DNA of 64,000 bases from Thermoanaerobaculia bacterium (GCA_038245905.1 JBBRRY010000019.1:1-64000), one strand, 5' to 3'; shown: positions 25,363-42,084, counted from the first letter of the stretch. Numbers and translations: made by a program. The notes: generated by a model from the letters alone, not told the origin.

Positions 25363-25377
25363 CGTTCTCTCCTTCTG

Positions 25378-25632
25378 TCAGGCGCCCGGGATCTTCAGGA
25401 CCTGGCCCGGGTGAATCATGTCGGGGTTCTTGATCGTATCCTTGTTCGCCTCGAAGATTTCCTTCCAGCGCGAGGCGTCACCGAAGATCTTCTTGGCAAT
25501 CTTGGAGAGGCTGTCACCGCCCACGACCGTGTACGCGCGCGTGATGACCTCGCCTGTCGGCGCCTCGGCCGAGCTGGAGCTGCCGCTCTTCACATCCGAG
25601 AAATCGGGCTCTGGTTCGTCGGGAAATGGCAT
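25378..25632 (-). CDS. Small LysM-domain protein
   Basis: YTVVGGDSLSKIAK...WKEIFEANKDTIKNPDMIHPGQVLKIP; AAGGAG precedes ATG 25632. Confidence 0.9.
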   Translation of the reverse strand: MPFPDEPEPDFSDVKSGSSSSAEAPTGEVITRAYTVVGGDSLSKIAKKIFGDASRWKEIFEANKDTIKNPDMIHPGQVLKIPGA

Positions 25633-25668
25633 GGGACTACTCCTTTCGTAGGGGGCAAGCATATCGAA

Positions 25669-27378
25669 TCATTCCGCCATGCACAGCCCGACGCGGTGGC
25701 CCGCGCCGCGTCCGCTGACGCGCCAGCCGCCCTCGACGCGCTCGAAGGCGTCGGGGGGCGACGGCAAGCCGTCCCAGCCAAGCGTCGCCGCGATCCGGCG
25801 GTGGAGATCGTCGTAGAGAAAAGACTTCTTCTTCGACGAGGGGGAGAAGAAGGTCGCAACCGTTAACCTCACGCCGCCCTTCTCGGTGGCTTCGAGGCCG
25901 ACGACTCTTTCGCCGAACGCGGCGTCGATCGAGCTCGAGGGCCAACGCCGCGTCCAGCGGAACGAGGCGTCTTCTCCCGAGTGACGCGGGCAGACGTCCG
26001 GCGTTTCGCTGCCGCTTCCCCAGACGGCCTTCTCGGAGAGCGGCGCACCGCCGCAATGTCCCGTGAAGTGGGACGGTCCGGACAGCGTCGCCGCATCCGT
26101 CGCGCGCCGCCATCCGGCGTCGTCGAGGAACGCGGGCGGCGCGGCGATCGCGTTGCGCTTGTCCACCAGCGCGGTCCAGCGAGACGTCCACGTCACGTCC
26201 GGCCCCAGGCCCGCGAACCGCGCACAGTGCGTCAGGTCGCAGACGTCCTCGGCGCCGTGCCGCGCGCCGCGCGCGAGAAAGCGCAGGATGGCGGCGCCAA
26301 GCTCCTCCTTCCGGGCGCGCGGCGCGCTCGGCATCTCGCCGCGGATCACACCCTCTACGTAGTCGCGCCGCGTCGTCGTGAGGACGAGGGACACGCCGGG
26401 CGCTTCCGGATTCCCCCGCGCCCTCAGGCTTCCGCAGACGATGCGGACGAGGCCGAAGCGCGGGAGTCCGAGGAGCCATGTTCCGGATTGGAGGTGCTCT
26501 CCCGGTCCCAGGGCGACCTCGGAGCCCGGACCGATCCACGCGGCCCCGCCCGGCCCGTCGACGCGCACGGGCGCGCTCCCGATGTTATTCGCGGAGATCT
26601 CCGTCGCCCGGAGCGCGACGAAGAGGCGCACGGAAACGGGTCGTTCGGTGAGCTTCGGCTCTTTGGCCGATCGTCCCCCGGCGTTCTCTTTCTGAAGCAG
26701 GGCGCCGAGCGCGGCCGCGGCCCGGGAACCCGTGCCGCGCGGGAGGAGGGCGAGGTGACCCGAGCGGCCCGCCGGATCGAAGAGCACGGCCCAGCCCGAT
26801 GTGCCGAGCGGCGCGCCGTCGAGTGCGTGAACCGTTCCCGTTTTCGCGAAAAGGCCGCGCAGCGGCACACCGGCCGCCGTGCCGCCTTCCCCGGCGTCGC
26901 GCATCCCGTCCAGCCATTCGCGCCGGACGTCGTCGCGCACGGCCCACGCCGTCGTGAGGAGCTCGGCGTAGGCCTGGAGGAGGCGACGCGGCGCGATGAC
27001 GATGTTCGGCCCGAGGCCGATCGCGGCATCCGGCGTGACGGGTCCTGAAACGTCGTAGCCGGCGGCGGTCAGCGTCTCGCGCAGCAGGGCTTCGGGCGTT
27101 TCCGCTGCGAGCCGCCGGAAATAAGCGTTGCACGACCGCGCCGTGGCGCCCCGGAGGTCCATGGCGCCGTGCCCCCCATCGAGCCAGCATCGCGAAGATC
27201 GGTCGCACGTCGAGCGCGGCGTCGGCGTGGCCGGGTCGGAATGCGCGAGCGCCCAGGCCTTCGTCACCCACGCTTTCTGGAGCGAGCCGACGCTGTGGGG
27301 GGTGTCCGCGCCTTCCTCCGGCGAGACCTGCCCGTCGGCAAGGCGCCAGACGAGGAGTCCGGCCGCGAGGAGCTTCAT
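25669..27378 (-). CDS. PBP transpeptidase-like domain fused to a SpoIID/LytB-like domain (YfaQ-like)
   Basis: GSLQK (SxxK), SCN (SxN), KTGT (KTG); C-terminal YVEGVIRGEM, CDLTHC, GHRVGLC. ATGA overlap at 27375-27378. Confidence 0.7.
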   Translation of the reverse strand: MKLLAAGLLVWRLADGQVSPEEGADTPHSVGSLQKAWVTKAWALAHSDPATPTPRSTCDRSSRCWLDGGHGAMDLRGATARSCNAYFRRLAAETPEALLRETLTAAGYDVSGPVTPDAAIGLGPNIVIAPRRLLQAYAELLTTAWAVRDDVRREWLDGMRDAGEGGTAAGVPLRGLFAKTGTVHALDGAPLGTSGWAVLFDPAGRSGHLALLPRGTGSRAAAALGALLQKENAGGRSAKEPKLTERPVSVRLFVALRATEISANNIGSAPVRVDGPGGAAWIGPGSEVALGPGEHLQSGTWLLGLPRFGLVRIVCGSLRARGNPEAPGVSLVLTTTRRDYVEGVIRGEMPSAPRARKEELGAAILRFLARGARHGAEDVCDLTHCARFAGLGPDVTWTSRWTALVDKRNAIAAPPAFLDDAGWRRATDAATLSGPSHFTGHCGGAPLSEKAVWGSGSETPDVCPRHSGEDASFRWTRRWPSSSIDAAFGERVVGLEATEKGGVRLTVATFFSPSSKKKSFLYDDLHRRIAATLGWDGLPSPPDAFERVEGGWRVSGRGAGHRVGLCMAE

Positions 27379-28904
27379 CGTGCCGGGGAAAGGACGACGC
27401 GTTCCGTCCAGCCGGCAGGCGAGGCGCAGCGCTCGACCGAAATCGTCGCGATTCCCGGAGCCCAGCCCAAGAGCCCGAGGACGCGGTCCGAGAACGGCCG
27501 CGCTCGCTCGGGCGAGAAGACGCCCTCGGCGCGCGCCCAGTCCTTGCCTTCGCGCGCCACGGCGGACAGATCCAGCCAGCTCCACCTCACGAGCGAGCCA
27601 TCGGCCGAAGGTTCCACGATTCCGGCAAGGTCCTCGCGCGAGGCCGCGATCCACAGCCAGGCACCGCGCCGCTCCCATGCGAACGCGGGCAGGTCCGGCC
27701 CCACGCGGAGCTCGCTCCGTTCCCTCCGGGCGACGCCTGCGCGGCGCGCGGCCATGGCGAGCGCGAGAGCCACGAGACGCGCGTCCCCCTCGACTGGCCG
27801 CTTCACAACGAGGCGCCGCGCTCCGCTCTTCCCGATCTCCCATCCCCACCCGTCGACAGGACTTTCCTTCAGGTGGGCGGCCCACTCCGGCAGCTCGCCC
27901 GGCTCGCCCCCGGCCTTCTCGTCCGGCGCGGCGCGCGTCAGATCCACGAGGTAGGGATCGGCCGCCGTGGAATTCGCGTCGGGCAGCGGCTTGAGAGACG
28001 CCACGGGCAGCGCCTTCGGCTCGGGCACGCTTTCGAGGAGGCCCCGGCGAAGAGCCCCGAAGAGGCGGGAGCCGTCCGTCTCCCAGCCCGCGGCGGCGAG
28101 GTCACGGCCGTCGATTTTCCAGGCCGGGGCGGCGGCGCGCGAGGCGTCGGTTCCCTCGCGCACCTCGACGAGGGCCTCTCCTTCGGCGCGTAGCGCCGCG
28201 AGAATCGTGCCGGTTTCGGATCCGGAGACCCCTTCCGCAAACAGAAACTCGCGGCGGAAGTAGAGGTCTTTTCGAAGCGCCGCGACGTCGAGCTTCAGGG
28301 AAACGAGCCCGGGCAGGAATCCCCTCACGCCCTCGCCCGCGAGCGAGCAATCGAGGGCGAGCTGAAGAGCCTTCTCGCTCGTCGCAATCAGAAGGACTCC
28401 GTTCGACTCCGCCCACGCGAGACCCATCCGCCGCGACGCGGCCCTGAGGTCTCCCGCGCCGCGGGCCACGACGCGGTACGCCATGCCCCGGCGGTCTTTC
28501 GCCGTCCCGCCCGGCAGCTTCAGAACCGCGGCGGCCGACGCCGTCCGAACCGCCAGGACCGTCTCGAGATCGCCGACCGAGAGGAGCGTGACGCCAATCT
28601 CCGATGGCTGCAGCTTCATGAGCGAGCCCCAGTCGAGAGGGAGATCCTTCGTGAAGAGCGCCCATTGCGATTCCAGCTTCCCGCCCACGCGGGTCTGCCG
28701 CCAGCCCGCCGCGACCGGATCGGACGCCGGGAGAGCGCCGGACAGCCCCTTGCGGAAGCCACCCGAAAGCGCATGGTCGAAGGCCGGGACGTCGGAGATC
28801 AGAAGGACGACCGGACCCTCCGGAAGCGGGAGCGCTGCCTTCGCCTGTCCTGCGGCCGGGCTCGCCGCGAGCAGCAGCGCGAAGAGAGCAAGGGCTTTTT
28901 TCAT
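27375..28904 (-). CDS. Exported hypothetical protein (operon member)
   Basis: Sec signal peptide MKKALALFALLLAASPAAG; ATGA-coupled on both sides; no recognised motif. Confidence 0.75.
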   Translation of the reverse strand: MKKALALFALLLAASPAAGQAKAALPLPEGPVVLLISDVPAFDHALSGGFRKGLSGALPASDPVAAGWRQTRVGGKLESQWALFTKDLPLDWGSLMKLQPSEIGVTLLSVGDLETVLAVRTASAAAVLKLPGGTAKDRRGMAYRVVARGAGDLRAASRRMGLAWAESNGVLLIATSEKALQLALDCSLAGEGVRGFLPGLVSLKLDVAALRKDLYFRREFLFAEGVSGSETGTILAALRAEGEALVEVREGTDASRAAAPAWKIDGRDLAAAGWETDGSRLFGALRRGLLESVPEPKALPVASLKPLPDANSTAADPYLVDLTRAAPDEKAGGEPGELPEWAAHLKESPVDGWGWEIGKSGARRLVVKRPVEGDARLVALALAMAARRAGVARRERSELRVGPDLPAFAWERRGAWLWIAASREDLAGIVEPSADGSLVRWSWLDLSAVAREGKDWARAEGVFSPERARPFSDRVLGLLGWAPGIATISVERCASPAGWTERVVLSPAR

Positions 28905-31900
28905 GGCACGTTCTCCGCGTTGAGCACGCGCGCATAGAGATCCCACGTCAGATCGCGCGGGCGAAGCTCGGCGAAGCGCCCCGCCGTCGTCCGGGTCACG
29001 TCCGGCCGCGGCAGATTCCGTCGCGAAAGGCTTTCGACTTCGCCTTTCAGGGCCGCGAGCGCGGGAGCTTTCCTCTCCGCGAGAGCGGCGAGGGCCTGAG
29101 CGGCGGCCGCCTTGTCGCCGGATTCCGCGGCCACGCGCGCGACGTCGGCGAGGAGGCCGTCGACCTCGGCCTTCGGGAAGCGGCGGCGCGCGAGCTCATT
29201 GGCGTCCACGAAGAGCGACGGGACGGCCGCCCGTGCCGACCGGAAGGAGCGGGTCCGCTCGAACCGGAGCACGCGCCAGCCGGGGACGTCTTCACGGCCT
29301 CCGAGAGCGGCCCAGGCCGGAGCCGCGACGGCTTCACGCGCAGGCGCGAGGCTCCGAAGGACGACGCGCGCCGAGAGAAAGTCGTACGGGTGCCGCGCGA
29401 GATGCGTGGCGAGTGTGTCGCCCCAGAAGTCGATGTCCGGCCCCTTCTTTGTCCAGAACGCGGCGGCGATCTCCCACGCGGCGGGAGCGCCGCTCGCCCG
29501 GCCTGCCGGGACGCCGGGGATCCGCCGCCACGCGTCGAATGCGTCTCGCTCTTCGGTGCGCGTTAGGGAGAGCCGCGCACGCACATGAACCCATTCGGTC
29601 CGCGCCTCGTCGGGAAGCTTGCGCAGGAGGAGGATGTCCGCGCGGACTCTCGCCTCCGCGAACGATCGGGGCTCCTCGATGCGTTGGAACCAGCGCCCCG
29701 CGGCGGCCGGATCCCGCGCGACGAGAGCCTTGGCAATCGCCGCGCGGTCGCCCGAAGGAGCGGGCCATTCTCCGCGTGCCCAGCTCTTCTCGAGATCCGC
29801 GATCGTCGCGTTCTGCGCTTCGGGGGTTGTCGCGAGCTCGAGCGAGAGCAGCCACGCCGCGAGTGGAGCGGGTCCGGCTTCGAGCTCCTTCTTCACGCGC
29901 GCGCGGAGCTTCTCTTCCGCCAGAGTGAGGGCGGCCCCGCGCGTCGAGTCGCGGAAGACCTTCAGCCACGTCACCAGGCTCGGAGCGCCCGAGGCCGTCG
30001 GTGCCGGCAGAGCATGTGCGTCCGGCACACCGGCTCCTTCTTCGCCCTCCTCGGCGGCCGGGGGCGGCGCGGCGGGAACGGCGGCGGCCGACCAGAAAAG
30101 CGGTGAAGCCCCCGGCGCCGTCGAGGTCAGCCTGTGGTCGAGGCGATTGAGCGCAGCCGCTTCGTCGCCCGAGGCGAGCTCGGCCTTGAGGAGAAGGAGC
30201 TCCATCGGCTCGCGCCGATCGAGCGTCTTCGCAGCGAAGTTGCGGAGCGGGTTCGGATCGGGCAGGGCGCGCACCGAGGCGAGAGCGTCGGCGCGGAGGC
30301 GCACGTCGACCGGCGCGAGAACGTCGCCCGCCGCCGCCCAGAAGGGCCCGAGCTTCCGCGCGGCGCGGTCGGGATAGCGAGCTGACCCCACGGACCAGAG
30401 GTCGTCGAGGTACCGGATCGTCCTGTCTCGAGAGAGGGTCTCGCCTTCCTTCTCCCAGCGAGCGGCGAGCGCGACGCGAAACGCGGCGGAGTCGGCCGGC
30501 GTGAAGCGCGCGGCGGCTTTGGGGCCCTCGACGTCCCAGAGCCACGCGAGGAGCCCCGGAGAGACCGACTTTTTCGCATCGAGCTGCTCGAGAGGCGCCG
30601 TCAGCCCGAAGTGCTTCGCCACGCTCTGCCAGGCCGTCCAGGTCTCCGGGTCGGCGCGATTCTGGCGCGAGCGGATCTCCGTGCCGAGAAGGTCGTCGGC
30701 CGCGCGGCGACCCGCCGCCGGATCATCTTTCACGAGAAGGCGCAGCCGCCTTAGCAGTCGGTCCCGCTTGCCGAGATCGGCGAAATACGTCTCGTCGAGC
30801 CGAAGCGCGAGCGGCACGTCACCGAGCCCTTCGGCGGTCCTCACGGCAAGCAGGGTCTTGTCCGTCTCGCCGCCGCGAGACGGCGACTCCAGCGGCACCC
30901 ACGGCGCATCGACCGCGCGCTCCCGCCAGCGCGAAAGGGCCTCCAGGACGTACCACGCGTCGCCGGGACGCGCGCCCCAGAGTCGGCCCGGCAGGCGCAT
31001 CGCATCGGCGCCGCCGCCCGTGAACGAGTCTTCGCCGGTCTCTCCCGAGGGACGCGGAGAAAACTCGGGCCACGTCCACTTCGGGTCGGGAGTCAGGACG
31101 TCCCCGAGGCTTCTCGGCCCCCGCAGCCGCACGATGTCCGCCGAGGACGCGGCGTCCTTCTTCCCTTCGACGAGGGCCGCGAGAGACGACGAGGCACGGG
31201 ACACCGCCGTGCGCCTCTGAGCTTCCAGCGGGTTCAGGCGGGCGGCCGCCGCCGTCCCGCGCGCGGAAAGGAGAGCCAGCCATGCCCCCCTCGTGTCGTC
31301 GTCGAGGATGTTCACGAGCGGGCGGAGGTCCCAGGCGCCGCCGGTCGCCGCCTCGAAGCGCGCGTAGGCTTCTTCCGTCCGGAACCAAGAGGCGGCGTGC
31401 GCCTTCCAGCCCGCGTGTTCGGGCGTCTCGGCGAGGCGTGCGAAGGCTTCCACCGGGAACCAGCGCGCGAACGGGAGAGGCAGCGCGTGGAGCGGTCCTG
31501 TCGAAACACGCGCTTGAAGCTCCGCAACCCGAGCCTCGAGGATCGGCACGAGAAGAGCGAGGCGATCGCGCGAGACGAGATAGGACGTCCACTCGGGGAG
31601 GAAGTCCGAGTTCGAGAAGGCAATCGTGTGGCCTTTGCTGGCCCCGGAGGCCGGTGGAACATCCTTGATGGGGCGAATACTCCGTAAGAAGGCAACAGGG
31701 GGATTGGCGCTCCAGGGGGCGCCCGCGTCGTGCCGGGATGCCAGCAGCCGTCGAGCGACTTCCTCAGAGAATCTGTGGAGCCCGGCGCGGCCGGCGAAGT
31801 CCCACCAGCGGTTGAGGGCGGCAACGTTCATGACTGGTTCGCTTCGCCCATCCGGCTTGCCGCCGCCTTCTTCTCTCTTACCCTCTAAGAACATCTGTAT

Positions 31901-34900
31901 TACTAATTGTTTCTGCAATTCGTCGAGCTGCTCGGGCTTCGCGATCCGCGCGATGACCTCCGCCGCCTCGTTCCGGAAGGACTTGTCGCCTCCGAACGCC
32001 CGAACGAGCGTCGTCAGCTTGTCGGCACGGAGAGCGATCTCCGTCCTTTCGCCGTGCGAGAGCTGCACTTCGGAGACGCGCCTGAAGTTCCCGCCGGGGA
32101 CGGCGACGGCCCACGCCTCTGCCGGACGGCCGAGAGCGAGGAAGCGGCGGGCGATGCGGGCGCGCCGTTCGGCTGCCTGGACCGCGGGCACCGCGCGGCC
32201 CTGCTCTTTCGCGTCGGCGAGCCAGGCCGCGAGCGACGCTCGCTCGACCTCGAGAGCCCGGCCCTCGTCGCCGGCCTTCACATAGAGAGAGGCGCGCCAC
32301 GAAGCCACGTTTTCGTCGCCCGCACGCGCCTTCGCCCAGGCCCCGAGAAAATCCGCCGCTTCCCGAAAGCGGTCCGCCCGCTCGAGAAGCGCGACCGTCT
32401 CCCGGTGCTGGCTCTCCCTTTCGGGCGCCACGAGCACCGCTTCCTTCGAGACGGCGATCGCGCCGTCGAGGTCGCCCGCAAACGTGCGGATCTCGCGAAC
32501 GGCCACCGCCCAGCGCACGTCGCGCGGGCTGTGCGCGCGCTGCGTTTCGAAGAACCCGAGCAGGTGCTTCTCGCGACCTGAGGCGACGGCCAGCCGGCAA
32601 ACCTCGCCAAGGAAGCCCCGATCCAGCCGCAGGTTCAACGCTTCGATGAAGAGGTCCACGGCCTCGGCGTTCCTGCCTTCTTCGCTCGCGGCTCGCGCGA
32701 AAGCAGCCCAGAGATCCGCCTTCTTGTTCTCGGGAAGAGCAGCCGCCGCTTTCCTGCCGCTCGCGACGAGGTCGACAGGAGCGCCGCTCCGGAGAGAGAG
32801 GCGGGCGTCGAGAGAAGCGGCGGCGATGCGCTTGTCGTCGTCGAGGGCGAGCGCGGCCATCGCTCGGAGGGCCCGCTGCGCCCGCGCAAGGTCGCCCCGG
32901 TCGAGCGATTCCTTCGCGAGGCGCTCGGTCAGGCGCTCCCGGTGCCCCGCCGCCGCTGCGCCGGCGGTCTTCTCGAGAAGATCGAGGCCTTCGGACGCGC
33001 GGCCCGAGCGGAAGAGAAACGCGAGCCGGTCCTCGAAGACGCCGAGCGACCAGGGATAACGCTTGCCCAGCGCCGCCCACAGCCCGTTCGCGTCCCCCTT
33101 CGTGTCTTCGGCGAAACCCGCGGCCCCGGCGAGATGGTGCATCTTCGTCGCGGCCTCCGGCAGGGCCTCGATGCGCGGTCCGAGCGATTTCCAGAGGGCC
33201 GCGGCCTGATCCGCGCGCCCGTGTCCCGAGAGGAAGTGCGCCCGTGCGATCTCGGCCTCGATGCGCTTCTCCTCGGTCGGCGCGAGCGCGGCCTCGCGGG
33301 CGAGAAGTGCGTCGTCGAAGTCCGCGTCGCGTGCCGGATCGGGAGCGAACCGTCGGTCCAGGATCTGGCCCCGCCGTTGCCGAAGCGCGCCGAGAAATCC
33401 GGAGCGCGTCGCGGCGGAGATCATCGCGTGCGTCTTCGCGACGAGCGCGGTGCCAACGCGGAGGAGTCCGCCCCCTTCCGCGGTCTGAGCGCCTTCTCGC
33501 GCGTCGGCGCGACGCTCCCGCCCCACGGCGTCGTTCGGCCGGTCCATCCAGTCGTCCCATGCGTCGGCTTCCTCTGGCGCGAGCGTGAGAAGTGAGAGCA
33601 ACGAGACGAGCGTTTCCTCGTCCCCCGCCTCGCCGGGCCGGAGAGCCGCGATGCGCCTCCCGACCAGCTCCTGGACGCGCGGCCGGCCCATGAGCCGCGC
33701 GAGGCGCTGCGACGCCCGCGGGTCGCCCCAGGACCAGCGTCCTCTGCCGCCGCCGTCCTCTCCGCGAAGAGCGGAGAGGTATTCGTCGACGGCCCCCGGG
33801 AGGTCGCGCACCTCTTCGCGCAGGATGCCTGCCTCGAACGCGTGCATGCCCGGGCGGCCGAGCCGCGCGCGGCCTGACTCGAGCGTCTCGAGCGCCTCCG
33901 CCATGCGGCCGTAGTCCCAGAAGATTGTCGCGACTTCCAGAATGCGCGCCGGGTCGCGCGGCGACGCCGCCATGACGTTTCGCCAGGCCTCACCCGCGGG
34001 GCCCGGGCGATCGAGGTCCTGCCAGGTCTCGCCTGCCGAGGTGTAGACGGCTGCCGGGTCTTCGAGGGCGGGCGCGACCGCGCGCGCGATGCGCTCCACG
34101 GCCGACGCGTGCGCGGCGTCGAGACCGGAGAGCGAGCGGTGCAGGGACATGGCCTGCTGCGCGATCGGTCCGTTGCCCGGATACGCCTCGGCGAGACGAT
34201 CGGCGAAGGGTGTGGCGCGCTCGAACTGCGACAGGCGCGCCCAGCCATCCAGAAGTAGGACGTTTTCCACCGGTGTTCTCACGGGGAGCGCCTCGAGCTC
34301 GACGAGAAACGCTTCGAGCCGTCCCCGCTTCACGAAATCGTCGAGGAGGCGTTGCCGCCGCGCGGAGTCCTCGAAGAGCAGGGCGTCCTGGCGGGGCTTG
34401 AGGAACGCGTCGGGAACGACCCCTCGCTCCTTCCAGTCCACCGGGCGGCTCCACCGCGGGTTGTCGAAGACCGATCGAAGAATCAGGTGGGACTCCGCCT
34501 GCCGCAGGACCTCGGGGCTGGCCGGGAAGCGGTCCAGGGCCTTGAGGCGAAGGTAGTCGCCGAAGCGGACGTAAGGATTCGGCTGTGCCTCGGCCGGGAC
34601 CGTCTCGAGGATGTTTGGATCCCGGCTGAAGATGTCGGCGGCCCGGAAGCGCGCCACGACGTCGTCGGCGAGAGTCTTCAGCTCCGTTGTCTTCTGCCGC
34701 CTCGCGTACCAGCGGGCGAGGCGGTTCCACCACTCCGGCCCGCCGAAGCTCTCCAGCGCCGCGCGATAGCGGGCATCGAGGCCGTCGTCCAGCTTCCAGC
34801 CGCCGATCTGGTCCGCCGACCATCGCCAGAGGCTTTCCGCGCCCGGAAGCCGGTCGAGCTCGCCGAGAAGGAGCGTCAGGGAAAGGCGGTGCGAGCGGTC

Positions 34901-36595
34901 GAGACCAGAAAGCCGCGTGATGGCTTCCCGGAGCGCGGGACCATAGACGTCCCGCGCAGCCGGGCGGCCCTCCCCCTCGCGCGCTTGCGCGGGAGCTTCC
35001 AGAGTCGGCATCGAGCCTGCCGGTGCGAGGAGCTTCAGGCGCTCGCTCCAGAGCGCGGCCTCGCGCTCCGGCTGCGGCTTCGTCTGCCTGAGGGCGAGAA
35101 GGACGACGCGCCGGGCCTCGGCCCGCGTGGCTTCGTCGCCCGCGTCGGCTTTCGGCAAGAGCTTCAGGGCGCTGTCTCCCTCGCCGCGCTCTACGTGTCG
35201 CGCCATGATCGCGACGGTGAGCCCCGGCAGCTTCGGATGTTTCGGGGCGCGCTTTTCCAGCTCGGCCGCGAGGAGCCGGGCGGCGGCAAACGTGCGGTCG
35301 GGCAGCCGGCGCGCCTCCAGCTCGGCGAGCGCGCGTTCCTTCTCGAATCCGGTGAGAAGCAGCGAGAGACCTCCCGTCAAGAAGCCGGGAGTCACGTCGA
35401 TGCGAGCGGCCCACCGGTAGGACTCGTCGTTGTACACGCCCCACGCGAGCGGCCGCCCTCCCGCCTTGAGGGCGAGCTCTGCCAGGGTCTCGAGGTCGTC
35501 GAGCTTTTCGGCGGGAGTTCCCGTCGAAGCGGCGGCGAGCCGCGCGCGAAACGCCTCGGGCACTCCGTCGACGGATTCCCAGAGACGGGCGGTGAGGAGC
35601 CACGCGCCACGGTCGAACGAGGCCGCGTGGCGCCGCTCGATCTGTGTCAGGAGCTCGAACGCGAGGTCGCCGCGGCTCTTCCCTTCGAAGTAGCGGGCAA
35701 GAAGGAGAAACGCCTTCGGGTCGAACGAGCGTTCCAGCGCGAATCGCCAGCCGTCCAGCTTCGCGCGGGCCGCTTCATCCGCGCGGCGCGCGAAAACCTG
35801 GAGCGTCTGCGGATCGGGCCGCCTCGACGCATCCCCTACGAAGGCTTCGAGCACCGCATACGCGCCGACCGGGTCTCCGTGGGTGCCCTTCAGGTCGGAG
35901 GCAAGTACCGCCCGGCGCTCGTCCGGCAGAGCCGCCGCCATCCTGAGCGCGTCCTCGGCTTCGTGCAGCCGGCCGGCGGCCTCGAGGGAGCGGATCCAGT
36001 CCTCCGTAAACGCCGGGTCCCGGGGAAAGAGCGCGGCCCGGTCCGCTTTCATCGAGAGGGGCTCGGCGACGTCCGGATGTGCCTCGGCCCACCCGATCCG
36101 TTCGGTGGCGAGGGCGCGCTTCTCGCCGTCGGAAAGGCCCGGAAGCGCTTTCGCGGCACAGGCGAATGCAAAGGTCCACGACCGGTAACGCGCGCCCCAG
36201 CGGGCGGCCTCGGCCCACGCCGCGGGCGCGGCCCCGCCGCTCCGGGACGCCCACTCGGAGAGCGCCTTCTCGGCGCCCGCGCGATCTCCCAGCTCGCGGC
36301 GCGCTTCGGCCAGGTGCCGGAAAGCGACGAGCGCGTTCGTCCCGTCCGCCGCGGCGACTCCCGAAGTCGCCGCTTCGAGCGAGGCGGCCAGCTCCCGAGT
36401 CGGCGCGGGGTAATGCACCGTCCGCCCGTCCACGACCGCGCGGCGCGTTGCGATCGACATCAGAAACTCGCCGTCAGAAAGCTCGGTCCACGGGATGACG
36501 GAGGAAGACGGAGAGGGAGACGACGAAGAAGAGAACCCTTGCTCAGAAAGTGAAAACAGGACGATGACCGCCAGCGCGCCTTTTCTCTCTCTCAT
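28901..36595 (-). CDS. Giant (~2564 aa) exported TPR-like alpha-solenoid protein
   Basis: Start re-called to ATG 36595 (ATGA overlap); hydrophobic N-terminus; TPR-like helix pairs such as AGETWQDLDRPGPAGEAWRNVM and VATIFWDYGRMAEALETLE. Confidence 0.75.
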   Translation of the reverse strand: MRERKGALAVIVLFSLSEQGFSSSSSPSPSSSVIPWTELSDGEFLMSIATRRAVVDGRTVHYPAPTRELAASLEAATSGVAAADGTNALVAFRHLAEARRELGDRAGAEKALSEWASRSGGAAPAAWAEAARWGARYRSWTFAFACAAKALPGLSDGEKRALATERIGWAEAHPDVAEPLSMKADRAALFPRDPAFTEDWIRSLEAAGRLHEAEDALRMAAALPDERRAVLASDLKGTHGDPVGAYAVLEAFVGDASRRPDPQTLQVFARRADEAARAKLDGWRFALERSFDPKAFLLLARYFEGKSRGDLAFELLTQIERRHAASFDRGAWLLTARLWESVDGVPEAFRARLAAASTGTPAEKLDDLETLAELALKAGGRPLAWGVYNDESYRWAARIDVTPGFLTGGLSLLLTGFEKERALAELEARRLPDRTFAAARLLAAELEKRAPKHPKLPGLTVAIMARHVERGEGDSALKLLPKADAGDEATRAEARRVVLLALRQTKPQPEREAALWSERLKLLAPAGSMPTLEAPAQAREGEGRPAARDVYGPALREAITRLSGLDRSHRLSLTLLLGELDRLPGAESLWRWSADQIGGWKLDDGLDARYRAALESFGGPEWWNRLARWYARRQKTTELKTLADDVVARFRAADIFSRDPNILETVPAEAQPNPYVRFGDYLRLKALDRFPASPEVLRQAESHLILRSVFDNPRWSRPVDWKERGVVPDAFLKPRQDALLFEDSARRQRLLDDFVKRGRLEAFLVELEALPVRTPVENVLLLDGWARLSQFERATPFADRLAEAYPGNGPIAQQAMSLHRSLSGLDAAHASAVERIARAVAPALEDPAAVYTSAGETWQDLDRPGPAGEAWRNVMAASPRDPARILEVATIFWDYGRMAEALETLESGRARLGRPGMHAFEAGILREEVRDLPGAVDEYLSALRGEDGGGRGRWSWGDPRASQRLARLMGRPRVQELVGRRIAALRPGEAGDEETLVSLLSLLTLAPEEADAWDDWMDRPNDAVGRERRADAREGAQTAEGGGLLRVGTALVAKTHAMISAATRSGFLGALRQRRGQILDRRFAPDPARDADFDDALLAREAALAPTEEKRIEAEIARAHFLSGHGRADQAAALWKSLGPRIEALPEAATKMHHLAGAAGFAEDTKGDANGLWAALGKRYPWSLGVFEDRLAFLFRSGRASEGLDLLEKTAGAAAAGHRERLTERLAKESLDRGDLARAQRALRAMAALALDDDKRIAAASLDARLSLRSGAPVDLVASGRKAAAALPENKKADLWAAFARAASEEGRNAEAVDLFIEALNLRLDRGFLGEVCRLAVASGREKHLLGFFETQRAHSPRDVRWAVAVREIRTFAGDLDGAIAVSKEAVLVAPERESQHRETVALLERADRFREAADFLGAWAKARAGDENVASWRASLYVKAGDEGRALEVERASLAAWLADAKEQGRAVPAVQAAERRARIARRFLALGRPAEAWAVAVPGGNFRRVSEVQLSHGERTEIALRADKLTTLVRAFGGDKSFRNEAAEVIARIAKPEQLDELQKQLVIQMFLEGKREEGGGKPDGRSEPVMNVAALNRWWDFAGRAGLHRFSEEVARRLLASRHDAGAPWSANPPVAFLRSIRPIKDVPPASGASKGHTIAFSNSDFLPEWTSYLVSRDRLALLVPILEARVAELQARVSTGPLHALPLPFARWFPVEAFARLAETPEHAGWKAHAASWFRTEEAYARFEAATGGAWDLRPLVNILDDDTRGAWLALLSARGTAAAARLNPLEAQRRTAVSRASSSLAALVEGKKDAASSADIVRLRGPRSLGDVLTPDPKWTWPEFSPRPSGETGEDSFTGGGADAMRLPGRLWGARPGDAWYVLEALSRWRERAVDAPWVPLESPSRGGETDKTLLAVRTAEGLGDVPLALRLDETYFADLGKRDRLLRRLRLLVKDDPAAGRRAADDLLGTEIRSRQNRADPETWTAWQSVAKHFGLTAPLEQLDAKKSVSPGLLAWLWDVEGPKAAARFTPADSAAFRVALAARWEKEGETLSRDRTIRYLDDLWSVGSARYPDRAARKLGPFWAAAGDVLAPVDVRLRADALASVRALPDPNPLRNFAAKTLDRREPMELLLLKAELASGDEAAALNRLDHRLTSTAPGASPLFWSAAAVPAAPPPAAEEGEEGAGVPDAHALPAPTASGAPSLVTWLKVFRDSTRGAALTLAEEKLRARVKKELEAGPAPLAAWLLSLELATTPEAQNATIADLEKSWARGEWPAPSGDRAAIAKALVARDPAAAGRWFQRIEEPRSFAEARVRADILLLRKLPDEARTEWVHVRARLSLTRTEERDAFDAWRRIPGVPAGRASGAPAAWEIAAAFWTKKGPDIDFWGDTLATHLARHPYDFLSARVVLRSLAPAREAVAAPAWAALGGREDVPGWRVLRFERTRSFRSARAAVPSLFVDANELARRRFPKAEVDGLLADVARVAAESGDKAAAAQALAALAERKAPALAALKGEVESLSRRNLPRPDVTRTTAGRFAELRPRDLTWDLYARVLNAENVP

Positions 36596-39033
36596 CTGAC
36601 TTCCACCGTCGTTCTTGCGAAACCATGGTTCCCTGCGCCGTCCGTGGCCTCGAAGAAGATCTGCCTCGCTCCCGCGGCACCGGGCGGGACGAAAAGCTCG
36701 CCCACCGAGCGCTTCGACGACCGATCCCAACGAAGGGGAACGGGCGGGCCTTCGCCGAGGCGCGCGGCCAGGAAGACGACGTCCGAATCGGCGCGCACCG
36801 AGACACGGAGCGTCCGCCCCGGAGCTGCCGGACCGGGGGGATCGGGAAGGATGACGGGTGGCGTTCCGTCGACAACGAGGTACTTCGTCTCGACGAGCGT
36901 GCGGCCCGACACGTCGTGGAGAACGATACGGAGAGGCAGCCTTCCGTCGGGCAGACCCTCCGGGACGAGAAAGCGCCCTTCCCATACGCGGCTGTTCGGG
37001 CGGCGCACGAGGTCGACCCGCTTCCCGAAGGGCAGCAGCGCGGAAGCGGAAACGATGCCCGGGTCCGCTTCGATGCGGATGACCGGATCTCCCGGCTGGA
37101 TGCGCCGCGGGCGAAGCAGCGACCGTGGCGCGGCAAGGAACGCCGTGTAGGGCGTTACGAACTTGTACCGGCGCGAGAGGGCGAGGATCTCGTCCACCCA
37201 CTCGCGCTTCTCACCCTCGAGCTCGATCAGCCTGAGCAGCTCGTCGACGCGCGCGCGCGCCCACCGGCGGGGAAGGTCGCGCGCCTCGAGCGCCGTCTCG
37301 GGGAATGGCGTCGTCACGGAGAGGGGCTCGCCGGAAGCGTCCCTGAGCATGAGAGTGGCCGACGCGAGAGGAACGGCATACCGTCCAATCCAGCCCGAGA
37401 GCGACCCCCGCGCCGGCGGCTGCGTCAACACGGCGTAGACGTCGCGCAGCTTCGGGTCGCCGCCCGAAACCGTGAACGGAACGTCGCCGCGTTCTCTCCT
37501 CGACATGGAGGGTGTCGGCTTCGGCGCGGGTGCGGCCGTCTCGAAGAGACGCCGGTAGAAGAGCGTCGCTTCGGCCGTCTCGCCCGAGGATGCAGTCGCC
37601 GTCGCGAGCGGGAGGAGCGCCGCGGAGGCAACGGCGTAGCTCTCGCGTGTCTCTTCTCCGGTCAGGATCGTGAAGAGCGGAATGCCCCCGCGCGCGGCGA
37701 CGAGATCGCCGCTCGGCCCGACGCCGTCCGTGAGGAGGACGATCCGCCCGGACCCTCCCACCGCTTTCGCCCCGGCCTTTACCGCCGCGGCCACGTCGGT
37801 CCCCGGCGCGAGCAGCCGGGCACGGAGGGCGACGAGCGCCGCCTGCCTCGCCGCGGGCGAGGCCGCGACCACCCCGGCGGTGTCCGGCGCGGGAGAGCGA
37901 TCGAAGGGGATGAGAACGAAGCGATCCTTCTCGCTGAGGGAGTCGAGGATCTTCACGAGGGCGCCATAAGCCGCCTCGAGGCCGCCCCAGCGATGCGAGA
38001 GCGAGGTGTCGAACAGGAGGGCGAGCGTGAGTGGCGCTCGGTGGCTCGACTCCGCAGGCCCACTCGCGGCCGCCGGGCTCGTCGCGCCGGCACCCGGCCG
38101 ATATTGCAGGAGAAAGAATCCGTCCTTTTCCGGCGGAATCTCCGACGGACGCTCCCAGGGCGCGAGTGCGAGCCCGTCCGGGAGCGCTCCGGACGGATTC
38201 CGGAAGGCGGACACCGTGAGCGGCGCGGAGGACGCCGGGCGGAAGCGCAGGACGACGTCCTTCTCCAGCTTCACGTTCGTACCGGAAAAGACCGCCTCGT
38301 TGCCCGTCCGCGAAAGCTCGAGGCCGCCGCCGACCGGCGGCTCGAGTGTTCCGTCGAGGAGCGTCACGCGCACACGCAGGCTCCCAGCGACGGGCGGCTC
38401 GCCGTCCCTCGGCCTGAACGCGATGCGAAACTCGCCGACTCCGTCCAGCCAGGGCACCTCCTGCTGGTACTCGAGCTCGAGGCGCTTCGTGCCGAGCGCG
38501 GGAATCGGCGCCACCTTGACCGAGAAGACCGCGCCTCCCGAGGATCGGTCCGCCGCGCGACCGGAGGAGCCCTTGTCGCGGTCTTCTTCCTCTCCCTGTT
38601 GGAGAAGGCCGGGATCGATGCGCTGCGTCGTGAGGTCGCGATAGATCGCGCGCGCCCGCCGCTTTTCGAGAATAACGCCGGGAATGCGCGTGAGGCCGTC
38701 CCACACCGCGAAGTCCCCGACCGCGCCCGAGGCCGGAAGTGCGAAGCGCCACGTGCCTTCCTGAACGGCCCCGGTGTGGTTTTCGAAGACCTGCCGCACG
38801 TTCACGCGCGCATATCCGCGGACGATTCCCGCATCGATCTCCATGGAACGCAGCGAGAGCACGCGGAGATCCGGGTGGCCGGTGGACGTCGGAACGAGAA
38901 GACCGGTCTGCGAAAGACCCGGAAAAGAGACAGAGATGGTTACAAACAAGAGAACGAACGTGATCGGGAGATTTGCAATCTTCCGCTTCCGCCTTGACGG
39001 GCTGGCACCGAAGGGTATCTCCAGCAAAGTCAT
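36592..39033 (-). CDS. Exported VIT (vault/inter-alpha-trypsin) plus vWA domain protein
   Basis: VIT: ARVNVRQVFENHTGAVQEGTWRFALP...FAVW; vWA MIDAS FDTSLS, GTD, LLTDG; C-terminal SRRYKFVTPYTAFL as in ITIH-like proteins. Confidence 0.85.
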   Translation of the reverse strand: MTLLEIPFGASPSRRKRKIANLPITFVLLFVTISVSFPGLSQTGLLVPTSTGHPDLRVLSLRSMEIDAGIVRGYARVNVRQVFENHTGAVQEGTWRFALPASGAVGDFAVWDGLTRIPGVILEKRRARAIYRDLTTQRIDPGLLQQGEEEDRDKGSSGRAADRSSGGAVFSVKVAPIPALGTKRLELEYQQEVPWLDGVGEFRIAFRPRDGEPPVAGSLRVRVTLLDGTLEPPVGGGLELSRTGNEAVFSGTNVKLEKDVVLRFRPASSAPLTVSAFRNPSGALPDGLALAPWERPSEIPPEKDGFFLLQYRPGAGATSPAAASGPAESSHRAPLTLALLFDTSLSHRWGGLEAAYGALVKILDSLSEKDRFVLIPFDRSPAPDTAGVVAASPAARQAALVALRARLLAPGTDVAAAVKAGAKAVGGSGRIVLLTDGVGPSGDLVAARGGIPLFTILTGEETRESYAVASAALLPLATATASSGETAEATLFYRRLFETAAPAPKPTPSMSRRERGDVPFTVSGGDPKLRDVYAVLTQPPARGSLSGWIGRYAVPLASATLMLRDASGEPLSVTTPFPETALEARDLPRRWARARVDELLRLIELEGEKREWVDEILALSRRYKFVTPYTAFLAAPRSLLRPRRIQPGDPVIRIEADPGIVSASALLPFGKRVDLVRRPNSRVWEGRFLVPEGLPDGRLPLRIVLHDVSGRTLVETKYLVVDGTPPVILPDPPGPAAPGRTLRVSVRADSDVVFLAARLGEGPPVPLRWDRSSKRSVGELFVPPGAAGARQIFFEATDGAGNHGFARTTVEVR

Positions 39034-40928
39034 TCTCTTTCTCTGTCGTTCTGAAGAGCAATCCTCGCGAGGCCTTCGTCCGTCCCGACGTAGAGATGCG
39101 TCGGCGCGTCCGCCGGCAGAAACGCCAGGCTGAACACGTCCGGCGAGGGAAGCGGGAGATTCAGCTTCTCGAAGCGCGCGACGCCCGGGTCCGAGCGCCA
39201 GAGGCCCTGGCCCTCAGTCCCGATCCAGACGCGCCCGGAGGGATCCGCGAGCATGGCGCCCGCGTTGATCTTCAGCCCGTCGGTCTCCACGAAACGCTCC
39301 CAGCTTTCGCCGCTCCCTTCGCCCCGGCGCCTGACCACGCCGCCGCCGTACGTGGCGACGAGGAGCGAGTCGCCCGTGTCGCGAAGCGCGGTGATCCACG
39401 GGTGCGGGAGCTTTCCCTCCCCCGCCACCACGCGCGCGACGTGGCGGCCGTCGATCCAGCCGAGTCCCGACGGAGTCCCCACCCAGAGCCGGCCGTTCGT
39501 CGAGGACGCCAGCGCGAACGCCTGGTTGCCCGGCAGGCCGTGGAAAGCCGAGAGCAGCCGCTTCTCGGGAAGAAGGACTCCCTGGCCATAGCCCACCGCG
39601 ACGCCCGAGCGCGTGGCGGCGAGCGAGAAAGCGGCTCCGGGATTGCTCTCTTCCCGGGTGGCCACCGGCCGTCCGTTCTCCAGCCGGACGAGACCCCGCA
39701 GCGTCGCAGCCCAGACCGTTCCCCCGGAGGCCAGGAGAGCGTTCACGCCCCATCCGGAGCTGGCGGGAACCGCGTTCCAGATAAGCCCGTCTTTCATCGC
39801 GACGCCTCTTGCGAGACCTCCGTCGAAGAACCCGGCCCAGAGCGTCGTTCCCTCCGCGGCGAGCGCATTGACGTGGGGGCGGGGAAGCGAGCCGGGCGCC
39901 GCTTCGCGCACGAGGACGAATCCCCGCTCGCGATCGCGCCGCCAGAGCCCGCTCTTTCCGGCCGCGAAAAGCTCTCCGCGGTCCGCGAAGAGACGCGTGA
40001 ACGACTCGGGCGTTCCCTCTTCGGTCCGTGACCCGTCCGGCCCGAGCGAGGCCATGCGATTCGTCTCGCGCTCGGGAAGCATCCGCCAGAGGCCGGCCGT
40101 GAGAGCTCCGTGTCCGGCGTCGCCGCCCCGGGGATGAACTGCGAGCGACGGCGTCTCTCCGTGTGGCGAGCCGTAAGCAATGCCGAGAGGCGTCGCGGCC
40201 CAGAGAACGCTCGCGCCCGCGTCGAACGCGAGTTCCTCGATCCAGGGATCGGGTGTGACCACGCGCCGCACAGCGCCGCCCGAGGCGGAGACGATGCGGA
40301 GCCCCGTCTCGCCGCCCGCAGCGATCTCGCCAGACGGAAGAAGAGCAATCGCCCGGACACTTTCGCCGTCGACGCGCTCGATCTCGCTCGAGCCGAACGC
40401 AACCCGAAAGAGTCCCTGCCGTGCGCCGACCAGGAGCTCACCACCCTCGGTCTCGACGAGGGCGCGCACGTCGAGGCGCCCCCAGGACGACGTCGCCTCC
40501 TCCGGTCCGCCCTGCGTGAGCCGTCCCCATCCTCCGCGCTCGGCGGCGAAGACCAGCGTCTCCCGCCAGCTCGCGACCGCCCGCTGGCGGAGGGTGGAGA
40601 GCCCCGCGATCGGGTCGAGGCGGCGCGTGCCGTCGGAGAGACCCGCGCCTCCCGCTTCCCAGAGCGCCCCGCCCACGACGGCGAGAGACGCGATGCTGGC
40701 GTCTCCCGTCAACGCGACGGCCGCGGAGGAAGGAGAGACGACCGCCCGAAACAAGAGAGGACGAATGGTCTCGGCGCGGAGGCGCTCGGGGGAAGCAGCC
40801 TCGCGAGTCTTCGCGGCGACGTGCCGGAGCCACAGCGCGCCTGCCGACGCGAGTGCCAGGCAGACGAGACCCGTCCCGAGGAGCGCGGCTCTTCGAAGAC
40901 CCTTGAGGGACACGGCGCGGATCTTAAT
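39030..40928 (-). CDS. Exported beta-propeller protein (two-component-regulator-propeller-like repeats); start ATT 40928 or GTG 40913
   Basis: Repeated blades LWAGFFDGGL, VWAATLRGL, LWVGTPSGL, LLVATYGGGV, VWIGTEGQGL, LYVGTDEGL; N-terminal signal or anchor. Confidence 0.8.
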   Translation of the reverse strand: MKIRAVSLKGLRRAALLGTGLVCLALASAGALWLRHVAAKTREAASPERLRAETIRPLLFRAVVSPSSAAVALTGDASIASLAVVGGALWEAGGAGLSDGTRRLDPIAGLSTLRQRAVASWRETLVFAAERGGWGRLTQGGPEEATSSWGRLDVRALVETEGGELLVGARQGLFRVAFGSSEIERVDGESVRAIALLPSGEIAAGGETGLRIVSASGGAVRRVVTPDPWIEELAFDAGASVLWAATPLGIAYGSPHGETPSLAVHPRGGDAGHGALTAGLWRMLPERETNRMASLGPDGSRTEEGTPESFTRLFADRGELFAAGKSGLWRRDRERGFVLVREAAPGSLPRPHVNALAAEGTTLWAGFFDGGLARGVAMKDGLIWNAVPASSGWGVNALLASGGTVWAATLRGLVRLENGRPVATREESNPGAAFSLAATRSGVAVGYGQGVLLPEKRLLSAFHGLPGNQAFALASSTNGRLWVGTPSGLGWIDGRHVARVVAGEGKLPHPWITALRDTGDSLLVATYGGGVVRRRGEGSGESWERFVETDGLKINAGAMLADPSGRVWIGTEGQGLWRSDPGVARFEKLNLPLPSPDVFSLAFLPADAPTHLYVGTDEGLARIALQNDRERE

Positions 40929-41109
40929 GGCTGCCTCCTCCGTTTCGTGAGAAACGCACGGGTCGTGCCGGCCCACTGGACAGCGCCCGTACTTCTTACG
41001 CCGATCCACGTGTTTTCCGTTTCGAAGAAGGTGCACCCCTTTGGAGATTACGGGCCTCGCCGTGTCGTTCTCGGCGCGCCGCCCCCTGCTAACCTTCCGG
41101 CAGACCGTC

Positions 41110-42084
41110 ATGAAGCTCGTCATTCAGATCCCCGCCTGGGACGAGGCGGAACAGATCGGACCCGCACTCGCGGAGCTGCCTCGCCGCGTGCCCGGGTTCG
41201 AGTCGGTCGAGACGCTCGTCGTGGACGACGGCTCGACCGACGACACCGCGGAGGCCGCGCGCCGGGCGGGAGCGGGCCACGTCGTCCGGCTTCCCATCCA
41301 CCGTGGACTCGCGTTCGCCTGGCGGGCCGGGCTCGACGCCGCGTTGCGTCTCGGGGCCGACGTCATCGTCTCGACCGATGCCGACCGCCAGTACGCGGCG
41401 GCCGACATCGAGGTGCTCGTCGCGCCGATCCTGAAGGGCAAGGCCGAGATCGTCGTCGGCGACCGCGGCGTCGCGACGAAGGACGACTTCTCCCCCGGCA
41501 AGCGCCTCACACAGCGTCTGGGGTCATGGGTCGTGCGGCGCGTCTCCGGCACCGACGTGCCCGACGCGACGTCCGGCTTCCGCGCCCTCACGCGCGAAGC
41601 CGCGATGCAGCTCAACGTCTTTTCGAAGATGACGTATACGATCGAGACGCTCATCCAGGCCGGCAACAAGGAGATGGCGGTCGCCTCGGTCCCCGTACGG
41701 ACGAACCCGCCCGTCAGGCCGTCGCGCCTCATCCGGCGCACGTCGAACTACGTCCTCGTCCAGGGCGCGAACATCCTGCGGATCACCGCGCTCTACAAGC
41801 CGTTGCCCGTGTTCTTCGGCGCCGCGGCCCTCCTCGCGTTCGCCGGCCTCGCGCTCGTCGCGCGGTACGTCTGGTTCGTCGCGATGGCTCAGAACCCCGC
41901 GGGCCACCTCCAGTCGCTCCTCCTCGCCGCCGTCCTCTTTGTCGCGGCGGTCGTCTGCTTCCTCTCCGGCCTCCTCGCGGACCTCATCTCGATCAACCGC
42001 GCTCTCCTCGAGGAGCTCGTCGTCGAGAAGAGGAGAGATGCTGCTTCGGAGAAAGACAGAGACCCGGGGATTCGGATTTCTTAG
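41110..42084 (+). CDS. Glycosyltransferase family 2 (DPM1-like, C-terminal TM helices)
   Basis: IPAWDEA, VVDDGSTDDT, TDADRQY, DATSGFRA. Confidence 0.9.
   Translation: MKLVIQIPAWDEAEQIGPALAELPRRVPGFESVETLVVDDGSTDDTAEAARRAGAGHVVRLPIHRGLAFAWRAGLDAALRLGADVIVSTDADRQYAAADIEVLVAPILKGKAEIVVGDRGVATKDDFSPGKRLTQRLGSWVVRRVSGTDVPDATSGFRALTREAAMQLNVFSKMTYTIETLIQAGNKEMAVASVPVRTNPPVRPSRLIRRTSNYVLVQGANILRITALYKPLPVFFGAAALLAFAGLALVARYVWFVAMAQNPAGHLQSLLLAAVLFVAAVVCFLSGLLADLISINRALLEELVVEKRRDAASEKDRDPGIRIS

Follow-up and report, generated by a model that had tools for sequence, protein, structure and literature searches.

Bacterial alpha-2-macroglobulins (A2Ms) are known from type II multi-gene operons of exported proteins, such as yfaA-yfaT-yfaS-yfaQ-yfaP of E. 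coli and magABCDEF of P. aeruginosa, and from the type I yfhM-pbpC pair. The Mag proteins of P. aeruginosa form an inner-membrane-associated periplasmic complex (PMC3735191, PMC5764988), with MagA, MagB, MagD and MagF as members of the inner-membrane-associated complex (PMC3735191), and MagD levels fall on loss of MagB or MagE (PMC5764988). MagE (PA4488, 61.7 kDa), although it has a signal peptide, was located in the cytoplasm (PMC3735191), and the mag operon protects against type VI secretion system (T6SS) effectors that target peptidoglycan (PMC12663445). Here we analysed a 64,000-nucleotide stretch (hereafter the window) from a Thermoanaerobaculia bacterium (GCA_038245905.1, JBBRRY010000019.1:1-64000), in which five consecutive genes (g1 to g5) encode a propeller protein, a VIT-vWA protein, a giant helical protein, an orphan-family protein and a fusion of a penicillin-binding protein (PBP) fold with a SpoIID-like part. 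An earlier note had tentatively joined these genes with a thioester A2M encoded nearby into a single envelope system.

We identified the five genes as an acquired operon of an uncharacterised acidobacterial family that probably encodes a periplasmic scaffold complex placing a peptidoglycan-remodelling enzyme. No papers describing this gene combination were found in a literature search and no characterised system was matched; the operon family is a so far undescribed acidobacterial gene set. The known kind that it seems to resemble is that of multi-protein periplasmic envelope operons with a YfaQ/MagE-type enzyme. New here are the five-gene fused-enzyme variant of the Holophagaceae and their relatives, its horizontal insertion in this genome, the profile homology of g5 to YfaQ, the TP0453-like fold of g4 and the refutation of the link to A2M.

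A conserved five-gene operon

All five long minus-strand reading frames that the earlier note had claimed were found where it had placed them (Table 1), and all four of the claimed ATGA start/stop overlaps were present (39030-39033, 36592-36595, 28901-28904 and 27375-27378). In orthologous loci, an in-frame NTGA overlap was kept at 27 of 30 g2/g3 junctions, at 44 of 44 g3/g4 junctions and at 32 of 42 g4/g5 junctions, in a junction set that counts five genomes twice; because these three downstream junctions are kept, the four overlaps in the window go beyond chance. At the g1/g2 junction, the in-frame NTGA overlap was present in none of seven orthologous loci. The G+C content of the window is ~69%, and G+C at third codon positions is 0.82–0.86 in the five genes compared with 0.84–0.92 in the flanking genes.

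Table 1. Positions of the five genes and of the island in the window
Feature	Coordinates	Strand	Description
g1	39030..40928	-	putative membrane-anchored propeller; 5' end uncertain
g2	36592..39033	-	exported VIT-vWA protein, 813 aa
g3	28901..36595	-	exported all-helical TPR-like solenoid, 2,564 aa
g4	27375..28904	-	exported orphan-family protein, 509 aa, TP0453-like fold
g5	25669..27378	-	PBP-fold + SpoIID-like fusion, 569 aa
Island, approximate limits	25663..41085		15.4 kb, exactly the five genes

Searching g4 in 401 genomes of the phylum yielded nine carriers, namely the window genome (G000) and eight genomes that all belong to one other family, the Holophagaceae (Acidobacteriota). The genes g1 to g5 were colinear in all six Holophagaceae genomes from which the neighbourhood was fetched (~47-60 kb each), with 39-59% identity. 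Among loci with a g4 alignment, at one genome per species, 42 of 42 showed the order g2-g3-g4-g5 over whatever part of it their contigs cover. No flanking gene was common to more than three of the six Holophagaceae loci, and those that recurred lay on different sides. The conserved unit comprises exactly these five genes. Among Holophagaceae, the operon is carried by 42 of 133 genomes, 22 of 76 high-quality genomes and 10 of 16 genera; this distribution is patchy, and the function of the operon is accessory.

The earlier note had described a translationally coupled unit of five exported proteins, each with a hydrophobic N-terminus. Coupling and co-inheritance stood, while export applies to most of the products: N-terminal signal or anchor segments are present in g1 to g4, and the hydrophobic N-terminus is clear in g1, g2 and g4, moderate in g3 and weak in g5 of the window genome. 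A scan of 25300-41200 with the sigma-70 consensus returned 0 promoter-like sites, along with 7 terminator-like sites where shuffled sequence would give 9.3, and was uninformative. The operon promoter must lie in the 185 bp that separate g1 from the divergent GT2 gene (40929-41112), and the sigma-70 consensus scan found none there.

More divergent variants were found elsewhere in the phylum. P0062, a distant relative of g4, has 33 carriers among the 401 phylum genomes, spread over about ten families, and six of the eight divergent loci fetched have propeller, VIT-vWA, giant and g4-like genes in the same order, with identities to the window of 33-35% for the VIT-vWA protein (g2) and 21-28% for the giant protein (g3); the other two have the g4-like gene alone. 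PBP-like and SpoIID-like parts lie downstream in three of the six colinear loci, and in two of these three they are in different frames, for which reason they appear to be separate genes. The window form would therefore be the fused-enzyme variant of a phylum-wide family with a g1-g4 core, judging by these sequence comparisons.

An island beside an independent macroglobulin gene

The five genes fill the divergent intergenic gap between a LysM gene (25378-25632, minus strand) and a GT2 gene (ATG at 41113, plus strand). This site is empty in all four same-genus genomes compared, where the flanking genes lie directly next to each other (~70 bp apart in G001), and the gene order is the same in all four: threonyl-tRNA synthetase (ThrRS), DUF4442, a 154-aa open reading frame (ORF), the small LysM gene, GT2, LPG_synthase_TM, DUF885, A2M and a RapA-like gene. 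Full-length g5 was found in none of 24 same-genus genomes and none of 16 same-order genomes, in which only a C-terminal SpoIID-like paralogue matches; the same-order set includes one unpublished genome, G030. The five-gene block is a horizontally acquired island in this genome. No integrase gene, tRNA gene or repeat was seen at the island borders when the border sequence was read, and no dedicated repeat or tRNA search was made.

The macroglobulin gene at 45033-51131 is as the earlier note had described it, as are the three genes on the plus strand between it and the operon, identified as GT2, LPG_synthase_TM and DUF885. The macroglobulin gene has bMG10, A2M and MG2 domains and a CTEQ motif read by eye. 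It lies 4.1 kb from the operon, and its neighbours in the window are a RapA-like helicase gene and the DUF885 gene, with no PBP gene. Orthologues with 74-85% identity are present in 24 of 24 same-genus genomes, which makes this A2M a core gene, and the same A2M neighbourhood occurs without the island in all four syntenic relatives. No A2M was found near the operon in any of the six Holophagaceae neighbourhoods or near the divergent variant in any of eight neighbourhoods of 20 kb each. The A2M family PF00207 was detected in only one of five operon-bearing genomes checked (G209), where it is 1.3 Mb from the operon.

Across the 133 Holophagaceae genomes, PF00207 is present in 60, with 5 positives among the 42 operon carriers and 55 among the 91 other genomes. 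This negative association gave Fisher P 8e-8 and a genus-stratified permutation P of ~9e-5, values that overstate the case because related genomes are not independent. Outside Holophagaceae, a divergent g4-like gene is accompanied by PF00207 in 26 of 31 genomes, compared with 245 of 401 as the background. We thus rejected a general anticorrelation between operon and A2M: it applies within Holophagaceae and breaks down for the divergent variant in the rest of the phylum.

The earlier note had proposed that the operon and the thioester A2M form one complement-like envelope defence or repair system, and had stated that the link would fail if homologues were neither co-located nor co-inherited. 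The neighbourhood and co-occurrence checks that were run gave no co-location and no co-inheritance, which is in large part that outcome. What speaks for such a system is the CTEQ A2M at 4.1 kb, the remote homology of g5 to YfaQ from the E. coli yfaS macroglobulin operon (see below) and the frequency of A2M among genomes with the divergent g4-like gene outside Holophagaceae. Against these stand the homologous neighbourhoods without A2M, the opposite trend within Holophagaceae and the status of A2M as a core gene of a genus in which the operon is an insertion; moreover, g1 to g5 contain no A2M, DUF1175, DUF2135 or DUF2138 match, and g4 reached only 1.4% against YfaA. A joint system is therefore highly improbable. 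Since A2M is core in the genus and the operon is an insertion, their adjacency is an accident of the island landing site; A2M and the operon are independent, and they are neighbours by chance. Likewise, the likeness to the type I yfhM-pbpC pair lies in the CTEQ thioester A2M of the window and the PBP fold of g5, whereas g5 has no GT51 glycosyltransferase domain and is not a PBP1C, and A2M is unlinked to the operon in every relative.

Several observations were made around the island and A2M. The LysM gene (84 aa, Pfam E 5.5e-12) adjoins the left border of the island and is conserved in relatives, so that a peptidoglycan-binding gene flanks the insertion on one side and a glycosyltransferase gene on the other. 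A DUF4442 thioesterase-like gene (23513-24142, minus strand) is contiguous in the window, while in three same-genus genomes (G001, G020 and G014) its last 46-48 residues map 2.7-5.5 kb from the first 149-182, a difference that reflects either an insertion in or beside the gene in those genomes or a deletion or fusion in the window. The A2M orthologue is in two to five pieces in three other same-genus genomes (G006, G007 and G008), some with an in-frame TGA, which may be due to pseudogenisation or assembly error. In four Holophagaceae genomes (G075, G421, G177 and G488), the A2M gene (1,653-1,982 aa) adjoins an ORF of 736-770 aa. With hhalign values of 0.6% and 0.1% and no Pfam family, this ORF was rejected as a relative of g4 or YfaA, and it is not the PbpC partner known from E. 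coli.

Protein products and their relatives

The product g5 has the motifs SxxK (SLQK), SxN (SCN) and KTG (KTGT) in order, all kept, as is characteristic of the PBP/beta-lactamase fold, and S32, K35, S82-C83-N84, K179-T180-G181-T182 and E348 are invariant in 18 of 18 aligned members. A cluster of H374, C380, H384 and C385 is at least 90% conserved across the same 18; E348 and this His/Cys cluster are at positions that we take to be those of the SpoIID catalytic Glu and zinc site. The g5 family profile matched PBP2 structures in the PDB with E values of 6.3e-8 (8yjx) to 4e-7, and matched B. anthracis SpoIID (4rwr) with E 0.0079 over 173 positions. Three listed family members carry a precomputed PF08486 match. 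The 'PBP-SpoIID' label of the earlier note is thus weak in Pfam, where the window copy scores E 7e-4 and 19.3 bits for Transpeptidase (cut-off 22.1) and E 0.24 for SpoIID, and is supported at the profile level. Compared with SpoIID/LytB proteins and class B PBPs, g5 fuses both domain types in 569 aa and lacks the pedestal that class B PBPs have.

Related PBP-SpoIID fusions with both Pfam domains have 27-32% identity to g5 in the best local alignment, one of which covers only 40% of the query. One of these fusions is a 666-aa protein of the myxobacterium Archangium (P0154) with SpoIID and Transpeptidase Pfam domains (g5 profile E 6.5e-34, 29% identity); because it carries both domains, the fusion exists outside Acidobacteriota. 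The carriers of g5 itself include a cultivable Geothrix isolate.

Alignment of the g5 family with a 17-member YfaQ/DUF2300 alignment gave hhalign 94.3% and E 1.1e-7 over 319 columns, colinear, compared with 40.8% for g5 against the single E. coli YfaQ sequence, and at E<=10 the Pfam DUF2300 model still did not match g5. Precomputed matches to PF08486 (SpoIID) and PF10062 (DUF2300) are recorded for YfaQ relatives. From these alignments, g5 is a remote YfaQ/DUF2300 homologue and not a family member by the Pfam criterion, and the parallel that the earlier note drew with the SpoIID-like yfaQ survives at this distance. MagE (PA4488) is probably the YfaQ orthologue, given its gene position, its size and the DUF2300 matches in Pseudomonas.

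The operon accordingly shares with the Mag and Yfa operons a multi-gene set of exported proteins and a YfaQ-kind gene of ~550-570 aa, with an N-terminal SxxK domain followed by a SpoIID-like part. There are also differences. Relative to the YfaQ consensus (GSLWK, SCG, KTW), g5 keeps SxN (SCN) and KTG. The operon has no macroglobulin gene, none of the five products matching A2M, MG2, bMG10 or A2M_BRD, and the window A2M is a separate core gene with CTEQ rather than a CXEQ-less operon A2M; as this defining component is absent, the operon is outside the macroglobulin operon family. No Pfam match to DUF1175 (YfaT/MagC), DUF2135 (YfaP/MagA,F) or DUF2138 (YfaA/MagB) was obtained in g1 to g5, and the operon has no small gene that could encode the YfaT/MagC or YfaP/MagA,F proteins. 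Conversely, the propeller, VIT-vWA and giant TPR proteins are without counterpart in the Mag and Yfa operons. As candidates for the missing counterparts, g2 was rejected as a YfaP relative (BLASTP gave nothing below E 5) and g4 as a YfaA/DUF2138 relative (hhalign 0.1% against a single sequence and 1.4% in the profile-profile comparison of 45 g4 with 18 YfaA sequences, with no Pfam match).

The giant protein g3 had no Pfam or NCBIfam family match in its window copy, tetratricopeptide repeat (TPR) models included, while TPR_19 was matched by 2 of 15 orthologues. A search with a protein language model pointed to TPR clusters, which is no more than a lead, recognition having stayed below the threshold. 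The AlphaFold (AF2) model of residues 1-1180, built on a 15-row alignment, consists nearly entirely of helical hairpins (pLDDT 77.6, pTM 0.42), and its top Foldseek matches are the long TPR scaffolds IFT-A, Ski3 and Ctr9 with E values of 2.7e-9 to 1e-7. The TM-scores against these scaffolds are only 0.11-0.16, as is expected since solenoids are flexible. As to the 'giant TPR' label of the earlier note, the predicted architecture, the Foldseek matches and the two orthologues suggest a TPR-like protein, and the window copy itself has no TPR match. We also noticed an invariant segment at residues 381-417 (window 35345-35455, minus strand; consensus GGRPLAWGxYNDExYRWAARxDRTPGFWTGGLSFLLTG) that interrupts the helical repeats with pLDDT <50, a candidate binding or membrane-contact loop. 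A complex prediction of g3 residues 2070-2564, an arbitrary segment, with g4 residues 22-509 scored 0.00, which gives no verdict and is not evidence either way.

The fourth product, g4, has a classical signal peptide and no Pfam or NCBIfam family. An exhaustive profile search of 1.84 billion proteins brought up only 66 representatives at E<=1e-3. Its AF2 model (pLDDT 88, pTM 0.84) has a two-lobed alpha/beta fold, for which the best structural matches are TP0453 of T. pallidum (3k8g; VIA Z 9.8, 197 aligned residues, root-mean-square deviation (rmsd) 4.5; Foldseek match to 3k8h with E 2.4e-4) and, for the N-terminal lobe, the extracellular sensor domain of PknH (4esq; Z 7.9, 116 residues, rmsd 3.4). 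Z values of such size can reflect no more than a common alpha/beta arrangement; g4 differs from both in sequence, at 9-12% identity, and is twice the size of TP0453. A DUF3352/DUF2125 lead was rejected, as there was no such Pfam match in g4 or in 11 distant relatives.

The VIT-vWA label of g2 was confirmed by a VIT match with E 9.7e-16 and 58.4 bits (Pfam cut-off 26.5) and a VWA_3 match with E 1.9e-5 and 25.2 bits, which is just below the 27-bit cut-off. At 57-64% identity to nine orthologues, g2 is the best conserved of the five genes. Its VIT-then-vWA order is the N-terminal architecture of inter-alpha-trypsin inhibitor heavy chain (ITIH)-like proteins, from which it differs in the sub-threshold vWA score, in a DxSxS motif that is not conserved in the family, and in being bacterial and operon-encoded with a conserved C-terminal region, which may be Ig-like as judged by eye. 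The window has DTSLS, but of 10 aligned members three have DTSLG and one has DTGLG, so that the last Ser is Gly in four of the 10; this weakens the earlier reading of the domain as a vWA with a metal ion-dependent adhesion site. Partial NCBIfam matches were obtained to TIGR03788 (E 5e-22), TIGR02921 and TIGR04286, far under the cut-off (78 bits against 552).

The propeller label of g1 was upheld by Reg_prop repeats (Pfam PF07494, E 8.7e-11). One transmembrane-like segment (Kyte-Doolittle 2.04) precedes the propeller repeats, suggesting a single-pass membrane-anchored protein with a periplasmic beta-propeller. The 5' end that the earlier note had set at 40928 is plausible in that it is 6 nt downstream of a Shine-Dalgarno sequence, GGAGGAGG, and doubtful in that its codon is the non-canonical ATT. 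As for other start codons, GTG at 40913 has no Shine-Dalgarno sequence, and ATG at 41111 or 41123 would enter the divergent GT2 gene. In each of six Holophagaceae orthologues, the start precedes an equivalent R/K-flanked hydrophobic helix by ~10 residues, which fits a start at or near 40928.

At the other end of the operon, the N-terminus of g5 in the window genome is short and weakly hydrophobic (best 15-residue Kyte-Doolittle mean 1.15), with no signal-like sequence seen upstream of g5 in the window, while several Holophagaceae g5 orthologues start with signal-like N-terminal peptides. The lack of a clear signal peptide in g5 and of a canonical start at the expected place in g1 would suit the view that the genes are neighbours without shared function, or that this genome carries the block as a decaying passenger. 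All five frames are nevertheless open and full length with their conserved motifs intact, and both gene order and the 4-nt overlaps persist across families, at 21-59% identity, so that we consider this view very unlikely.

Bat (Bacteroides aerotolerance) and MoxR-vWA-TPR clusters, in which exported or membrane vWA proteins are encoded beside TPR proteins, present another likeness. The five products here have no Pfam match to MoxR ATPase or DUF58, and the operon has no conserved flanking gene.

A putative peptidoglycan-directed complex

Gene content, coupling, conserved order, island status, independence from A2M, the fold or family of the products and the intact catalytic-type motifs of g5 are direct results; from these we infer mutual binding of the products, a periplasmic location and peptidoglycan as the substrate. 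By analogy with the mag operon, they may form an inner-membrane-associated periplasmic complex. In such a complex, the g1 propeller would tether the assembly to the inner membrane and g3 would be a scaffold whose length suffices to cross or line the periplasm, with g2 (VIT-vWA, adhesion-type) and g4 (TP0453-like) as binding modules. To these, the version of this lineage would add g5, combining a DD-peptidase-type PBP fold with SpoIID-type cleavage of glycan strands. g5 would cleave or trim peptidoglycan where the scaffold places it, and the complex as a whole would act on or survey peptidoglycan.

Several results weigh against this model. The window copy of g5 is below the Pfam cut-offs for both Transpeptidase and SpoIID and has no clear signal peptide, the vWA metal-site motif of g2 is not conserved in the family, the operon is patchily distributed in Holophagaceae (42 of 133), and the genes for peptidoglycan enzymes are missing from three of the six colinear divergent variants within the 4-5 kb fetched downstream. 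On account of the last point, the g1-g4 core may have a function free of peptidoglycan cleavage.

Possible purposes are housekeeping remodelling, defence or repair, and insertion of a surface structure. We ranked a generic peptidoglycan-directed scaffold complex first, with Mag-like defence and surface assembly as more specific rivals. In the former, which we hold to be possible but unlikely, the complex would be a macroglobulin-free envelope defence that guards peptidoglycan from T6SS effectors, predators and lysozymes, with the giant TPR and VIT-vWA proteins in place of the macroglobulin. The homology of g5 to YfaQ/DUF2300, the shielding against peptidoglycan-targeting T6SS effectors by the mag operon (PMC12663445), and the accessory, patchy and horizontally moving distribution, which is typical of defence genes, all agree with this, as does the rare co-occurrence of the operon with A2M in Holophagaceae genomes (five observed). 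On the other hand, the anticorrelation is not phylum-wide (26 of 31 have both) and kin are not independent, only one of the five genes is common with the mag and yfa operons, and no protease-trapping element was identified. PADLOC-DB models matched none of g1 to g5 at E<=0.01 (0 of 5), in a library that covers anti-phage systems only.

The same evidence allows a fuller and still more speculative version, to which we give only a slim chance. The operon would be a macroglobulin-independent envelope immune system in which the membrane-tethered propeller senses damage or foreign enzymes, the VIT-vWA and TPR proteins build a periplasmic cage or carpet that replaces the role of A2M, and the YfaQ-like (and presumably MagE-like) PBP-SpoIID enzyme repairs or trims attacked peptidoglycan, the cassette moving between acidobacterial lineages and tending to replace A2M in Holophagaceae.

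In other bacteria, long TPR proteins serve as scaffolds for the export of polysaccharides, which counts in favour of a surface or matrix assembly-adhesion system, in which the propeller, VIT-vWA and TPR proteins would handle an exopolysaccharide or adhesin and g5 would merely open the wall locally for a trans-envelope structure. The VIT-vWA protein resembles sortase or exosortase-target adhesins in its partial matches to TIGR03788, TIGR02921 and TIGR04286, some lineages have the g1-g4 core without peptidoglycan enzymes, and the island landed beside a glycosyltransferase gene. These NCBIfam scores, however, are those far under the cut-off, the GT2 neighbour belongs to the core synteny outside the island, and the conserved unit is without glycosyltransferase, polymerase, outer-membrane pore or sorting signal. 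A surface role of this kind is improbable in our estimate, and the generic scaffold complex that places a peptidoglycan-remodelling enzyme is retained as the probable reading.

Acidobacteriota are abundant in soils and sediments, and their envelope biology is almost unstudied. The operon provides them with a 15-kb exported module of five proteins, including a scaffold of 2,564 residues, that several acidobacterial families retain at 21-59% identity and that is transferred as a cassette. With the chance proximity of a thioester macroglobulin recognised, a tempting but false link is removed, and one recognisable tie is left, to the poorly understood YfaQ (and presumably MagE) component of bacterial macroglobulin operons. 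A YfaQ-type enzyme that has all of the PBP motifs and stands in another protein context could help to clarify the role of this enzyme family.

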